In this document: in pieces, positions 37,350 to 46,761 of the stretch
Position numbering within the stretch: the stretch's first letter is position 1
Layout of the letters: each line of letters opens with the position of its first letter
Assembly: GCA_039030395.1 (NCBI GenBank)
Contig: JBCCEF010000015.1
Span: 47,018 to 111,017 of the forward strand
Reading direction: 5' to 3'
DNA from: Acidobacteriota bacterium
Lineage (GTDB): Bacteria > Acidobacteriota > Thermoanaerobaculia > Multivoradales > JBCCEF01
Length of the DNA stretch: 64,000 nt
Position numbers and translations under genes: made by a program
The notes under the pieces: generated by a model
The model's database searches: none
Seen by the model: the letters and a program-made list of their open reading frames with translations, nothing else
What the model was told of the DNA's origin: nothing

Positions 37350-38957
37350 TTGACGAGGAAGGACAGAACGGGCAAAGGCACTTTGGGGGACTCCGGTCTA
37401 CCGGTTGCCAGCAAGTATGTTCAGCCGCCGCATCGGCGTGAACTCCTGTGGGTTGGAGCGGCGGCTCTCGTGATCGTGGCGCTGTTGGCCGCCTGGAGCC
37501 TGCTCCGCCGCGACGGTCGGATGGTTTCGAACGGTCCGCTGTCATCGAACCACGCCAATCTAGAGAACAACTGCGCCGCCTGCCACTCGGGCTTCGCTCC
37601 GGTGAGCAACGAGGCCTGCTCCACCTGCCACGAGAAGCACGGCGACGAACTTGGCGTCTACACCTTTGCCTCGCACTATCTCTACCGGTCCGACGACTTC
37701 CAGCGGGTGGTGCCCTCGCCGGACGAAGAGCCCTGCATCGCCTGCCACACGGAGCACCAGGGCCGCACCGCCGAGATCACCCGGGTGGCGGACGCCCGGT
37801 GCCAAGCCTGCCACGAGTTCTCCCCGTTCAGTGACCACCATCCGGAATTCGCCTTCGCCCAAGCGACGGAGCCGGACTCGAACCCCGGCGACCGTGCCCT
37901 CGCCTTCGCGCACATCCAGCACGTCAAAGAGCTGATTATCCGGCAGAGCCTCGACGCCTCGAATCCCGACGAGGTGGAGCGAACCTGCCTCGCCTGCCAC
38001 AACCCCGAACCGGCCGGCCGTTCCTTCCAGCCGATCGACTTCGACCGCCACTGCGACGCCTGCCACCTCGCCGCCACCGACCGCACGCCGCCGCTGCCGG
38101 TGGCCGGCGAATCCCCTGGGGTGCAAACGCTGCAGGCGATCCAGCTCGCCGGTTTGCCGGGCAGCCGTTGGGCGGACTACGTCAACCCCGGTGAGTTCCG
38201 GCAGCAGGGCGAGCGCATCGTCAAGAGCCCGCTCTACCACCGCGACCCGTGGGTGCTCCACAACCTGCGGCGGCTGCGCCAGCAACTGCTGGGCGACGGC
38301 GGCCTGGCGGACTTGTTGACCGCCTCACCGGACGTGCGGCCGGCCGAGCTGCGCTCGCTCTACGAAGAGGCCATCGCCACCCTCGAAGCCCAGGCCCTCG
38401 ACCTGCGCTCGATTCCCGACCGGGCGGTGCAGCGGGAACTCGAACAGATCGACACGGTCCTCGCCGCCCTCAAGCGACGGTTGGAGGATCCCCACGCGCC
38501 GCTCGACGAAACCGGCTTCCTCCTCGCCCTGACCCCGCCGGCAGATCCGGAATCCGCCGATGCGGAACGCATCCGCACCGTCGCCGAGGCGCTCACCGAA
38601 CCGTGCCGCAATTGCCACACGGTGGAAGACGCCACCATCGTGCGGGTGGAAAACGATCTCGGTACCCTCAAGCGGGCGGAGTTCAACCACCGTGCCCACA
38701 TGCTGCAGCGCGGCTGCCTCGACTGCCACACGGAAATCCCCTTCGCCGAGTTCCTGAATTCGGATGGAGCAGTGGTGCCCGCCGAACTGGACCGGGCGGA
38801 GATCCAGAACCTGCCCAAGATCGCCGTCTGTGGCGAGTGCCACAACGAGAACCTCGCCTCCCAGACCTGTGTCACCTGTCATCTCTTCCACCCGGACACC
38901 GACCGCCGCTCGGAGCTGATCCAATTCGTCAACCCGGAGACCGCCAATGCAGGCTAG
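37350..38957 (+). CDS. Membrane-anchored decaheme c-type cytochrome (10 CxxCH)
   Basis: N-terminal TM anchor (LLWVGAAALVIVALLAAWSLL) then CAACH, CSTCH, CIACH, CQACH, CLACH, CDACH, CRNCH, CLDCH, CGECH, CVTCH. TTG start preceded by ggagaggga. Confidence 0.8.
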   Translation: MTRKDRTGKGTLGDSGLPVASKYVQPPHRRELLWVGAAALVIVALLAAWSLLRRDGRMVSNGPLSSNHANLENNCAACHSGFAPVSNEACSTCHEKHGDELGVYTFASHYLYRSDDFQRVVPSPDEEPCIACHTEHQGRTAEITRVADARCQACHEFSPFSDHHPEFAFAQATEPDSNPGDRALAFAHIQHVKELIIRQSLDASNPDEVERTCLACHNPEPAGRSFQPIDFDRHCDACHLAATDRTPPLPVAGESPGVQTLQAIQLAGLPGSRWADYVNPGEFRQQGERIVKSPLYHRDPWVLHNLRRLRQQLLGDGGLADLLTASPDVRPAELRSLYEEAIATLEAQALDLRSIPDRAVQRELEQIDTVLAALKRRLEDPHAPLDETGFLLALTPPADPESADAERIRTVAEALTEPCRNCHTVEDATIVRVENDLGTLKRAEFNHRAHMLQRGCLDCHTEIPFAEFLNSDGAVVPAELDRAEIQNLPKIAVCGECHNENLASQTCVTCHLFHPDTDRRSELIQFVNPETANAG

Positions 38958-39795
38958 GCCCGCCCGCCTGCTCTGTCAGCGAGGAGCTGCCGGTGGCACT
39001 CGCTTCGACTTCACCGGCCAGGCGACCCTCGGTCGCGCCCCGGAGTGCACGGTGGTGCTGGAGGCCAGCGAGATCTCCAGCCGTCATGCTCGTATCTCCT
39101 GGGACGAGGAAGCCGGGCGCTACCTGCTCGAAGATCTCGGCAGTCTCAACGGCACCGAACTCGACGGCGAACCGGTGAGCGGCGGCGAGACCCTATCCCG
39201 CATGCACGTGATCACCCTAGGCGGGGCCGTCGAGGTCATCTACCAGGGTCCGGAGCTGGTGGCCGCCGCGCCGCCGACGGCTCCCTCAGAGGACTCAGGG
39301 CCGCTCGGCGACACTACCGACAGCCACACGGTGATCAGCGCTGAGCCGCTGGTGCTGCCGGGAAGCTTCGACGGCGACGACACCGGAATGGGCACCCGCA
39401 TCGAAAGCCAGATGGCGCCGCTGCCCTCGGCCTTCGGCACCGCACCACCGATCGAGCACGCGGTACCGGAGCCGACCTGGCGGCTGCGCATCCCCGAGCA
39501 AGGTCCGCAGGACGGTTTCGTCCTCCAGCCGGGAGCGAACCGGGTCGGGCGGCTGCCGAGCTGCGAGATCATGATCGACGGCGCCACCATCTCCCGGCTG
39601 CACGCGGTACTCACAGTGCATCGCGGACGCCTGCGGGTGCGCGACGACGGCAGCCGCAACGGCACTTGGCTCGACGACCAGAGAGTGACCGGGGACGTCG
39701 AAGTCTCCGCCGGTGCCGCCCTGCGGTTCGGCGAGGTCTCGGCGATTCCCCTGGTGGACCTTCCCAATGATTCCGGCCCAACGAATTCGGAGTAG
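38947..39795 (+). CDS. Tandem FHA-domain protein
   Basis: Two FHA cores: FTGQATLGRAPECTVVLEASEISSRHARISWDEEAGRYLLEDLGSLNGTELDGEPV and ANRVGRLPSCEIMIDGATISRLHAVLTVHRGRLRVRDDGSRNGTWLDDQRV. Confidence 0.7.
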   Translation: MQARPARLLCQRGAAGGTRFDFTGQATLGRAPECTVVLEASEISSRHARISWDEEAGRYLLEDLGSLNGTELDGEPVSGGETLSRMHVITLGGAVEVIYQGPELVAAAPPTAPSEDSGPLGDTTDSHTVISAEPLVLPGSFDGDDTGMGTRIESQMAPLPSAFGTAPPIEHAVPEPTWRLRIPEQGPQDGFVLQPGANRVGRLPSCEIMIDGATISRLHAVLTVHRGRLRVRDDGSRNGTWLDDQRVTGDVEVSAGAALRFGEVSAIPLVDLPNDSGPTNSE

Positions 39796-39802
39796 ATCCG
39801 CA

Positions 39803-46204: not shown

Positions 46205-46390
46205 TTCGCCTTATGATTTCAGCTGCCCTGCTAGCCTTTCTCTCTTTGAGGGGGCTTGGCGCCCCCTCACCTGAAATGAAACGTCTTTTCAGGTTCACCC
46301 CATCCTCGGCGCCTACGGCGCCGCCTCGCCTTTCAGGCTCGGAGCAGGGCACTGAACGGCCATGCTGAGTTTGTCGGTGCCCTGCTAGGA
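46205..46390 (+). repeat. Intergenic structured repeat, copy B (full length, with terminal hairpin)
   Basis: Near-identical, as reverse complement, to 50752-50920. Internal palindrome GGGGGCTTGGCGCCCCCTC and terminal hairpin CAGGGCAC...GTGCCCTG. Confidence 0.55.
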
Positions 46391-46401
46391 GGCTCCAAAA
46401 A

Positions 46402-46761
46402 ATGCCTAAGATCCTGCTCGTCGAGGACAACGAGATGAACCGCGACATGCTCACCCGGCGACTGAGCCGAAAGGGGTATGTCGTGGCGGTGGCGGTCGAC
46501 GGCCAGGAAGCCCTCGACGCTGCCCGCGGCGAGGCGCCGGACCTGATTCTGATGGACATGAGCCTGCCGGTGATCGATGGCTGGGAAGCGACCCGGCGGC
46601 TCAAAGCGAACCCCGAGACCCAAACCATCCCGGTGGTCGCCCTCACCGCCCACGCCATGGCCGAAGACCGTGAAAAGGCCCTCGCCGCCGGCTGCGACGA
46701 CTACGACACCAAGCCGGTGGAATTCAAACGCTTGCTGGGGAAAATCTCGGCCTTGTTGTAG
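46402..46761 (+). CDS. Single-domain CheY-like response regulator
   Basis: ILLVEDNEMNRDML...DLILMDMSLPVIDGWEA...TAHAMAEDREKALAAGCDDYDTKP. RBS ctaggagg. Confidence 0.8.
   Translation: MPKILLVEDNEMNRDMLTRRLSRKGYVVAVAVDGQEALDAARGEAPDLILMDMSLPVIDGWEATRRLKANPETQTIPVVALTAHAMAEDREKALAAGCDDYDTKPVEFKRLLGKISALL

Follow-up and report, generated by a model that had tools for sequence, protein, structure and literature searches.

We analysed a 64,000-nucleotide (nt) stretch of an Acidobacteriota bacterium (Thermoanaerobaculia, Multivoradales; assembly GCA_039030395.1, contig JBCCEF010000015.1, positions 47,018 to 111,017 of the forward strand), hereafter the window, in which a run of multi-haem cytochrome genes leads into genes that join redox domains to FHA domains, followed by protein kinase and two-component genes. 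The contig is GC-rich (~65-70% GC). We set the gene series from the GC content at third codon positions (GC3) and from homologues, and called domains with Pfam scored against its curated gathering cut-offs. The elements that a first-pass annotation had read from the letters were all present by Pfam: a tandem-FHA protein, an FAD-FHA-FHA-ferredoxin oxidoreductase, a receiver (REC)-kinase fusion, a hybrid histidine kinase (HK) with two receivers, and a CheY. Every domain it listed scored above the Pfam cut-off at the coordinates given and on the + strand, and its FHA assignments held in the profile search (113.5 and 63.3 bits vs a cut-off of 20.7, two stretches per protein). The region is most likely the cytoplasmic input-and-control end of an operon of the ptdABCDEFG type, named in a 2024 preprint (10.1101/2023.11.21.568154), with a separately acquired signalling cassette at 42293-46761. 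The features, with proteins named after their Ptd counterparts, are:

29129-31006, + strand: PtdA-like penta-haem cytochrome c with a signal/anchor helix (5 CXXCH).
30961-32607, + strand: PtdB-like porin candidate, called from position and sequence features; start codon uncertain.
32604-34736, + strand: octa-haem cytochrome, a duplicated PtdD-like protein with two c554-like tetra-haem halves (Cytochrome_C554, 8 CXXCH).
34797-36479, + strand: PtdE, with two cNMP_binding-type domains and a DmsB/NrfC-type ferredoxin with four Cys clusters.
36476-37324, + strand: PtdF, a five-helix membrane protein and candidate di-haem b wire (H92/H106 in transmembrane (TM) helix 3, H261/H275 in TM helix 5).
37350-38957, + strand: PtdG, a membrane-anchored periplasmic deca-haem cytochrome c (10 CXXCH, one N-terminal TM helix).
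38947-39795, + strand: tandem-FHA adaptor, with domains d1 at residues (aa) ~24-95 and d2 at aa ~196-265 (Pfam FHA E 6e-33, 2 stretches).
39803-42079, + strand: flavoprotein fusion, Pyr_redox_2 + FHA + FHA + Fer2.
42080-42292, + strand: intergenic gap with three tandem GC-rich hairpins.
42293-43753, + strand: receiver-Hanks Ser/Thr kinase fusion (Response_reg E 5e-33, Pkinase E 5e-52).
43753-46185, + strand: hybrid HK, HAMP-HisKA-HATPase_c-REC-REC (Pfam).
46402-46761, + strand: stand-alone CheY-like receiver (Response_reg E 1.9e-28).

The genes between 29129 and 42079 overlap or lie no more than ~60 nt apart. The deca-haem and FHA genes share 11 nt, and the ATG of the flavoprotein at 39803 stands 8 nt past the FHA stop and is preceded, 11 nt upstream, by a GGAG; the open reading frame (ORF) that opens at 39713 was not taken as the start. 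An ORF at 36469-37353 was also rejected, in favor of the overlapping frame 36476-37324 (GC3 0.90 and homologues). NCBIfam offered no model at family level for any of the conserved proteins of the block, and scans for sigma-70 and terminator consensus sequences were uninformative in this high-GC organism.

The flavoprotein fusion combines four domains in a single polypeptide, which a predicted model parts by disordered linkers into a flavin domain, an FHA pair and a ferredoxin domain:

39803-40942, + strand: flavoprotein domain, aa 1-380, with a thioredoxin reductase (TrxR)-like FAD + NAD(P)H two-Rossmann fold (Pyr_redox_2 E 3e-20).
41090-41380, + strand: FHA-a, aa 430-526, partly degenerate.
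41399-41680, + strand: FHA-b, aa 533-626, canonical.
41795-42079, + strand: C-terminal 2Fe-2S ferredoxin domain, aa 665-758, and stop codon (Fer2 27.5 bits, cut-off 21).

The flavin domain matched PDB profiles of TrxR/YpdA (7a76, E 1.5e-9; 7a7b) and of TrxR-like ferredoxin-NADP reductases (6gas, 3ab1), and its GGGPGG and GGGTSAAE dinucleotide motifs are invariant in 79 sequences; NCBIfam scores of the flavoprotein fell far under the equivalog cut-offs. The two FHA domains together reached a Pfam E of 2.9e-17. FHA-b keeps G560, R561, S576, R577 and N598 in all 79 sequences and matched the FHA domains of OdhI/GarA in the PDB (E 3e-8). The ferredoxin domain matched Ferredoxin-4 (9i2a, E 1.8e-9) and terpredoxin. 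Its ligands C699, C704 and C745 are present in 78-79 of the 79 sequences, in a C699-x4-C704-x2-D707 arrangement that places Asp707 at the usual third-Cys position in 78. This pattern suggests an unusual Cys3Asp 2Fe-2S site, possibly of the kind found in E. coli SdhB.

Searched against 5.8 billion proteins, the fusion had at least 120 full-length homologues (53-72% identity, 97-100% coverage) with the same Pfam architecture, some of them on multi-megabase contigs. The architecture check that the first-pass annotation had proposed for the FAD + FHA + Fer2 fusion is thus answered by these homologues, which also rule out the mis-joined gene pair it had named as a danger: the fusion is genuine. An exhaustive HMMER search of 1.84 billion representatives at 50% identity gave 119 clusters with E <= 1e-30, ~40 of them full-length. 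Five representatives of ~360-390 aa (P0394, P0408, P0418, P0424 and P0434) cover the FHA-FHA-Fer2 half only (query 385-758) and others the flavin half only. These half-length entries, mostly on short contigs, could reflect contig truncation or real split-gene versions. They lend something to the view that the fusion is mis-joined or the signalling genes accidental neighbors, as does the mobility of the REC-kinase cassette relative to ptd. We find that view hardly credible: the full-length homologues lie on independent contigs that include multi-megabase assemblies, many phyla are represented among the genomes of the 79 full-length ORFs that we aligned, and the synteny statistics given below argue against chance. 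It is refuted for the fusion and for the link between the FHA adaptor and the flavoprotein, and remains only for the His-Asp cassette.

To follow the fusion across bacteria, we scanned one genome for each of 185,579 species and retrieved 200 pattern-matched stretches, of which 187 encode a relative in about ten phyla. The carriers include Acidobacteriota (Thermoanaerobaculia, Holophagae and the cultured Sulfidibacter corallicola), Rhodothermales and other Bacteroidota, Ignavibacteriota/Chlorobi, Zixibacteria, KSB1, Nitrospirota, Eiseniibacteriota, Calditrichaceae, a Chromatiales metagenome-assembled genome (MAG) and 'Deltaproteobacteria'. When the proteins of the window were compared by tblastn and blastp with 80 loci, the PtdE-PtdF-PtdG-FHA-FHA-flavoprotein block was recovered in 55-59 of them, with the same order and strand in most and few rearrangements (L051 and L064, for example). 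Fifty-three loci had 6.5 kb or more of upstream sequence, and 49 of them encoded at least three of PtdE, PtdF, PtdG and the FHA-FHA protein. The gene overlaps within the block are typical of translational coupling.

In 59 loci the tandem-FHA adaptor is encoded directly 5' of the flavoprotein, and the two genes typically overlap by 4 nt. Both FHA domains of the adaptor keep the Gly-Arg/Lys, Ser-x-x-His and Ser-x-Asn contacts to phosphothreonine (pThr) in 56-61 of 62 sequences. The linker between them carries two short motifs:

39319-39369, + strand: linker motif 1, DSH-T128-VISAEPLVLPGSF, a candidate phospho-acceptor/FHA ligand (T128 in 60 of 62).
39385-39435, + strand: linker motif 2, GMG-T150-RIESQMAPLPSAF, the second copy of the linker motif (T150 in 58 of 62).

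The linker otherwise varies in length and composition and holds two to four copies of the motif across phyla, with a consensus of about [ED][KR]-T-x-[VIL]-[DGE]-x5-6-[LV]-P-x-x-L, in which position +3 is acidic. This combination, with the Thr invariant, has the look of an FHA ligand or a kinase site. The REC-kinase-bearing relatives that come closest have an adaptor of ~180 aa with a single FHA domain (L087 6771-7313; L088 7043-7591), so the second FHA domain and the linker are not universal.

Kinase genes gather next to the flavoprotein gene. Twenty-seven start 0-5 kb downstream of it and one at 5-10 kb, in the 42 loci with 10 kb of downstream sequence, and a kinase or a PP2C phosphatase lies within 1.5 kb in 35 of 66 loci. 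Four kinase architectures flank the gene: PEGA kinases with PP2C, TonB_C kinases, plain kinases and REC-fused ones. In FCB-group loci (L080 12229-17278; L063 12369-16514) the flavoprotein gene is followed by PP2C, Pkinase-PEGA and two CsgG/TPR lipoprotein genes; Thermoanaerobaculia and 'Multivoradales' loci carry a convergent Pkinase-TonB_C gene, and another acidobacterium a plain kinase. One locus (L089) has a divergent kinase upstream, and there too an FHA gene follows the cytochrome. A second kinase and CsgG/TPR lipoprotein homologues were looked for in the window, and none was found.

The kinase of the window belongs to a three-gene cassette with intact signalling motifs. The REC-kinase retains GSGTFGS (G-loop), VALK, HRDIKPAN, DFG and YMAPE motifs and the receiver Asp (Pkinase 177 bits), and its REC-Pkinase homologues number thousands. 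The hybrid HK runs from a TM helix through a ~170-aa extracytoplasmic region and a second TM helix to HAMP, HisKA, HATPase_c, REC and REC, and has the SHELRTP and DTGIGM/GGTGLGL motifs and the DD...D...K residues of its receivers; its ATG overlaps the kinase stop by 1 nt (TGATG). A gap of ~214 nt parts the flavoprotein and REC-kinase genes. It can form hairpins of 7, 11 and 7 bp (minimum free energy of the fold -83.5 kcal/mol, z -1.95), and no T-tract follows them, nor was a T-tract terminator found there. The gap is probably an operon/cassette boundary and could instead be a regulatory RNA element. The REC-kinase/HK/CheY triplet follows the operon in three loci (L037, L087 and L088) with flavoproteins 63-65% identical to that of the window, and the CheY-like gene travels with the REC-kinase and HK in L085-L088. 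On this comparison the cassette is independent, juxtaposed to the operon in one acidobacterial sub-clade only. The first-pass annotation had integrated Ser/Thr phosphorylation with a His-Asp phosphorelay; that part of its proposal is weakly supported at best, with the triplet adjacent in L037, L087 and L088 and standing apart in L085 and L086. A functional link between the cassette and the FHA proteins is weakly suggested by gene neighborhood and is plausible because the clade has no other adjacent kinase.

The genes from 29129 to 42079 read as a Ptd-type operon, a match that we made to the published description of ptd by the kinds and order of the genes. In that account, PtdA is a penta-haem homologue of cytochrome c552 of a purple sulfur bacterium, PtdB a porin, PtdC a flavohaemoprotein-like FAD/NAD(P) oxidoreductase, PtdD a tetra-haem cytochrome, PtdE a cNMP-binding protein with 4Fe-4S clusters, PtdF a 'ferric reductase-like' membrane protein and PtdG a deca-haem cytochrome (10.1101/2023.11.21.568154). 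Penta-haem, tetra-haem-type, PtdE, PtdF and PtdG genes are common to both in kind and order, with the porin candidate standing where PtdB would be, and the PtdE-PtdF-PtdG order of the published operon is kept in most of the loci that carry these genes. The sole PDB match of our penta-haem protein is cytochrome c552 (5ze8, E 1.2e-12), the same homologue that the preprint cites for PtdA. The porin candidate (548 aa) has a signal-like N-terminus, ends in ...LLKF, had no Pfam or NCBIfam match, and has homologues in the same position in nine loci. Past the signal peptide, at aa ~75-105, it bears a His/Glu/Gly-rich repeat (HGEDAHGEDGHGAEAHGEDAHHGKKGGHH) that may bind metal. The octa-haem protein matched Cytochrome_C554 in two stretches (E 8.7e-25) and has eight CXXCH motifs, as do 20 of 30 homologues, and PtdG homologues have exactly ten in 55 of 59. 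In Chlorobi, Bacteroidota and Rhodothermales loci, a 1225-aa deca-haem LVIVD-repeat protein replaces the PtdA/porin pair upstream.

The window departs from the published operon in three respects. The single tetra-haem PtdD is here doubled to an octa-haem protein. There is no PtdC between the porin and octa-haem genes, the porin ORF ending at 32607 and the octa-haem gene starting at 32604, and the sole flavoprotein of the block is the TrxR-type fusion 3' of PtdG. Unlike the ptd operon, the window has the FHA-FHA and TrxR-like FAD-FHA-FHA-Fer2 genes past PtdG, and kinases or phosphatases come in addition; neither FHA domains nor kinases are mentioned in the ptd preprint or its supplements (10.1101/2023.11.21.568154).

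PtdE and PtdF have features of a relay from the cytoplasm into the membrane. The four Cys motifs of PtdE (aa 408-418, 444-456, 476-486 and 521-541) are of the CxxCxxCxxxC(P) type and are conserved across 55 sequences. We found neither a TM segment nor a Tat/export signal in PtdE and placed it in the cytoplasm because it has no export signal. PtdF has five hydrophobic helices with a helical insert of ~110 residues between the fourth and fifth, which the positive-inside rule and Arg-rich loops would place in the cytoplasm. Its four His form two pairs, each 14 positions apart (H92/H106 on helix 3, H261/H275 on helix 5). Their conservation is 98-100% over 58 sequences, and none of them varies in a 40-sequence alignment that reaches down to 24% identity. 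The AlphaFold model of PtdF is confident, with a predicted local distance difference test (pLDDT) score of 93, and its fold resembles STEAP4, b561, NOX5 and SpNOX, with no Pfam match to Ferric_reduct, Cytochrom_B561 or Ni_hydr_CYTB. From the His pattern and the modelled fold, PtdF is a predicted di-haem-b transmembrane wire. We also examined distant PtdF homologues and their neighborhoods one by one. In Chloroflexi they adjoin a multi-haem cytochrome, a small 4Fe-4S ferredoxin and an FHA-free Pyr_redox_2 flavoprotein. The last of these was rejected as an orthologue of the fusion (26% identity over 183 aa, E 0.001) and counts as an analogous partner. PtdF/PtdG-type pairs thus occur with three non-orthologous flavoproteins, namely PtdC, the Chloroflexi enzyme and the TrxR-like fusion, as expected if the partner of the wire is a cytoplasmic pyridine-nucleotide dehydrogenase.

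Based on cofactor motifs, topology and synteny, we infer an electron path in which cofactor loading, order, direction and terminal acceptor are all predicted. The TrxR-like flavoprotein would oxidize NAD(P)H and pass the electrons through its own C-terminal 2Fe-2S center to the four [4Fe-4S] clusters of cytoplasmic PtdE. They would then cross the membrane on two haems b ligated by the four invariant His of PtdF, reach the membrane-anchored deca-haem PtdG and continue via the octa-haem protein to the outer-membrane porin/penta-haem pair. The whole could operate as a split, multi-subunit NOX/STEAP-like conduit from NAD(P)H to the outside that bypasses the quinone pool. Such electron export would dissipate membrane potential, which would explain the heavy regulatory hardware, and a path without energy conservation would suit a tightly controlled overflow or acceptor-specific function.

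The conservation of the FHA proteins and their neighbors suggests that threonine phosphorylation could switch this flow of electrons across the cell envelope. The phospho-sites and kinase-substrate pairing are predictions built on the observed domain content, conservation, synteny and fold similarity. The Hanks kinase would phosphorylate T128 and T150 in the linker of the adaptor, and the pThr residues would be read by FHA-b of the flavoprotein and/or by the two FHA domains of the adaptor itself. Docking of the flavoprotein on PtdE/PtdF, its release or its auto-inhibition could thereby be switched, and in many lineages PP2C would reverse the switch. In this clade the receiver-fused kinase may take its signal from the neighboring hybrid HK, which has a sensor region outside the cytoplasm, and the CheY-like protein may serve as a phosphate sink or branch. 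The first-pass annotation had Ser/Thr phosphorylation gate the redox module, a proposal that gains comparative support from the pThr contacts in three of the four FHA domains, the Thr motifs of the linker and the recruited kinases and PP2C. We give the whole chain, from NAD(P)H to the porin/penta-haem pair with phospho-switched engagement of the flavoprotein, an even chance of being right. More tentatively, and with the balance tilting against it, these loci may represent a new class of redox machine in about ten phyla, a quinone-bypassing NAD(P)H-to-outside conduit whose pThr-switched donor answers to kinases that sense the periplasm or a His-Asp relay.

Several observations pull the other way. 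The authors of the ptd preprint state that Ptd function 'remains completely unknown' (10.1101/2023.11.21.568154); extracellular electron transfer, the setting in which the first-pass annotation placed the locus, is an assumption. Both cNMP-type domains of PtdE have a conserved PQS where the phosphate-binding Arg of the canonical PR[ST]A motif is expected; this makes cyclic-nucleotide control doubtful, and the ligand of the domains may be something other than a cyclic nucleotide. The full-length flavoprotein model reached medium confidence (pLDDT 68) and was not used for a fold search, sequence having already settled what the domains are. In two loci, from a Cytophagia MAG and Ca. Coneutiohabitans (L034 and L041; 9923-13175), the fusion and a PP2C stand without any ptd gene inside 10 kb; these genomes may encode the ptd partners at another place, or the flavoprotein may serve a second function. 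A regular expression requiring T and P served in part to define the linker motif, and the same T and P columns also appear in an unbiased alignment. In L085 and L086, the REC-kinase/HK/CheY triplet lies far from any ptd or FHA gene, which, with the hairpin-rich gap of ~214 nt in the window, implies that its target may be something else; the L086 chromosome (9,328,236 bp) does appear to hold flavoprotein and PtdF homologues as well, as does the 12.18-Mb contig of the L085 protein. Further, FHA-a is degenerate: the Asn of its SxNG motif is Thr or Ser in 57 of 79 sequences and kept in 16, and the Ser of SxxH is kept in 58 and replaced by Ala in 17. About half of the loci, including that of the cultured S. 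corallicola (L043), have no adjacent kinase or PP2C, and no PP2C is encoded anywhere in the window.

The loss of two pThr contacts from FHA-a, the kinase- and phosphatase-free loci and the lack of a PP2C in the window also speak for a phospho-independent role of the FHA domains, as a scaffold of the YscD/SctD, TagH or EssC type that would tether the flavoprotein to the membrane complex, with the neighboring kinases regulating something else; so does the Yop-YscD_cpl profile, which also matched all four FHA domains. We consider a scaffold unlikely. Three of the four domains keep every pThr contact over about ten phyla, invariant Thr motifs stand in the linker, and kinases are found proximally rather than distally at a ratio of 27:1, in four independent architectures and with co-directional PP2C.

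Sequence leaves the direction of electron flow unconstrained, a further point against export. Electrons could run inward from an outside or periplasmic donor via PtdF/PtdE to the flavoprotein, for NAD(P)+ reduction or as a redox signal relayed by the FHA/kinase machinery, or the chain might simply report the redox state of the periplasm. All the cofactors are reversible in principle, and the many sensor-type domains (cNMP-like, FHA, and kinases with periplasmic PEGA or TonB_C domains) would suit such a role. Inward flow is proposed by the authors who described a similar three-gene set in the Fe(II) oxidizer Ferrigenium straubiae (10.64898/2026.01.22.701106), and ptd is reported in nitrite oxidizers (10.1101/2023.11.21.568154). 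On general bioenergetic grounds, electrons running inward would have to go from the positive to the negative side of the membrane and climb to the NAD(P) couple, which would be doubly unfavorable without energy coupling, and the conserved block encodes no energy-coupling device. NOX, STEAP and cytochrome b561, which have the same membrane fold, move electrons outward. We regard inward flow as quite improbable, and outward flow is favored by thermodynamics and by the NOX/STEAP/b561 analogy.

The export conduit could also be real and end in periplasmic nitrogen-oxide or hydroxylamine chemistry rather than extracellular metal reduction, in which case the framing as an EET locus would be wrong and FHA control could still hold. 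PtdA and the octa-haem protein match c554-type and NrfA-COG cytochromes. A role in nitrogen-oxide metabolism was raised as a possibility in the ptd preprint, which found ptd in Nitrospirales/nitrite oxidizers and in nod-transcribing bacteria (10.1101/2023.11.21.568154), and the Ferrigenium cluster adjoins nirK (10.64898/2026.01.22.701106). We rate this end point as decidedly improbable, given the porin-like gene between two multi-haem cytochrome genes. The deca-haem/LVIVD-repeat protein of the FCB-group versions also speaks against it: cytochromes of the outer surface offer an analogy that would have this protein face outward. No catalytic CXXCK or P460-type site came to notice, in an analysis that included no search aimed at one.

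Multi-haem porin-cytochrome conduits drive metal cycling, corrosion and bioelectrochemistry. The inputs known for them are quinol dehydrogenases, and the control known for them acts on transcription. The conduit that we propose would link cytoplasmic NAD(P)H directly to the envelope without quinones, would be gated fast and post-translationally by Ser/Thr phosphorylation and, if true, would be the first respiratory or electron-overflow pathway gated in this way in bacteria. The proposal also supplies the orphan Ptd operon, whose transcripts occur in oxygen-deficient zones of the ocean, with a testable electron source and regulators, with concrete residues to probe (the four His of PtdF; T128 and T150; R561, S576 and N598) and a cultured host in S. 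corallicola. Whether or not gating proves correct, the fusion defines a conserved multi-domain family for which databases offer no label beyond 'FAD-dependent oxidoreductase' or 'FHA domain-containing protein'. The conserved association should surprise specialists in electron transfer and in bacterial Ser/Thr signalling, and what we propose beyond architecture and synteny is interpretation.

The surroundings of the operon and cassette are mixed. A phage-type integrase gene at 21187-22599 is followed by a low-GC (53-57%) stretch that reaches 28420. It codes for a methyltransferase and a TauD-like dioxygenase and, on the - strand, for a 1314-aa protein that contains numerous WD40 repeats. The interval 21187-28420 looks like an acquired island directly upstream of the ptd operon. 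An Rfam scan of the whole window gave no match, which excludes an rRNA operon as the explanation of the low-GC stretch. Past the CheY gene, 46765-52763 encodes a TPR/YfiO-like lipoprotein (- strand), a 337-aa protein without a family, a PQQ_2/BamB-like beta-propeller and a large TPR protein; in another locus (L083), a PQQ propeller gene likewise lies 3' of the kinase.

The first-pass annotation had known of no description of this layout among extracellular electron transfer (EET) loci, a claim that holds nearly but not fully. We found no paper on the fusion, on the tandem-FHA adaptor with its Thr motifs or on the recurrent kinase/phosphatase partners, and literature on FHA domains with multi-haem cytochromes, EET, ferric reductases or porin-cytochromes yielded nothing relevant beyond two preprints. 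One had already named the cytochrome part ptd in 2024 (10.1101/2023.11.21.568154), and the other reported in 2026 an FHA domain fused to a multi-haem cytochrome in a related-looking set (10.64898/2026.01.22.701106). In the latter, from F. straubiae, the cytochrome is a nona-haem protein with a single helix and a fused cytosolic FHA domain, and its gene lies beside those of a five-TM protein without an InterPro match and of a [4Fe-4S] protein (10.64898/2026.01.22.701106). Compared by description only, this set looks like a PtdEFG-type triad with the FHA domain fused elsewhere. The two share a single-helix multi-haem cytochrome, a five-TM protein, a cytosolic [4Fe-4S] protein and FHA on the cytoplasmic side, and they differ in that the Ferrigenium FHA domain sits on the nine-haem cytochrome itself, with no flavoprotein, tandem-FHA protein or kinase reported, and that the host is an Fe(II) oxidizer.

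Other conduits offer partial parallels. Like MtrCAB/Pcc systems with CymA, ImcH or CbcL (Shewanella, Geobacter), the window has a porin candidate flanked by multi-haem cytochromes and a multi-haem protein anchored in the inner membrane. Those systems draw from the quinol pool, whereas the conserved partners here are cytoplasmic Fe-S proteins and flavoproteins, and the family scores are low (30.6 and 22.1 bits vs a cut-off of 192 for MtrA/DmsE, TIGR03508; 23 vs 325 for GSU2203). To our knowledge, FHA or kinase control has not been described for MtrCAB/Pcc-type conduits, and our literature search found none. The predicted wire made of a periplasmic multi-haem protein, a membrane cytochrome b and cytoplasmic Fe-S proteins recalls the quinone-independent or quinone-linked Tmc/Hmc/DsrMKJOP complexes of sulfate reducers, with weak matches to DsrJ, DsrO and HmcB; however, the scores fall far under the family cut-offs and the window lacks a CCG-domain or NrfD-like subunit. 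We know of no FHA domain or kinase in those complexes either.

The membrane step resembles NOX/FRE/STEAP proteins and b561, in which electrons pass from NAD(P)H via flavin to two bis-His haems b held by two helices, with the His of a pair about 13 residues apart, and on to an outside acceptor. Here, in contrast, the parts are separate polypeptides, and a relay of one 2Fe-2S and four 4Fe-4S clusters would stand between flavin and haem. The flavoprotein is TrxR-type rather than FNR-type, the acceptor would be a chain of multi-haem cytochromes, and PtdF has five helices plus a cytoplasmic helical insert of ~110 aa, outside the Pfam Ferric_reduct and b561 families.

The proposed control module, for its part, resembles OdhI/GarA-PknG and PpkA-PppA-Fha1 of the type VI secretion system (T6SS), in which an FHA protein with its own Thr motif is switched by a Hanks kinase and PP2C to control an enzyme complex or an envelope machine. 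OdhI and GarA are the best PDB matches of FHA-b, and the company of PEGA or other periplasmic-domain kinases and TPR/CsgG-like lipoproteins in FCB-group operons is a further parallel. The Thr motifs of the window differ from those of OdhI/GarA and Fha1 in lying between FHA domains and not in an N-terminal tail, its four FHA domains are spread over two proteins, two of them within the flavoprotein, and the predicted target of the switch is a redox conduit.

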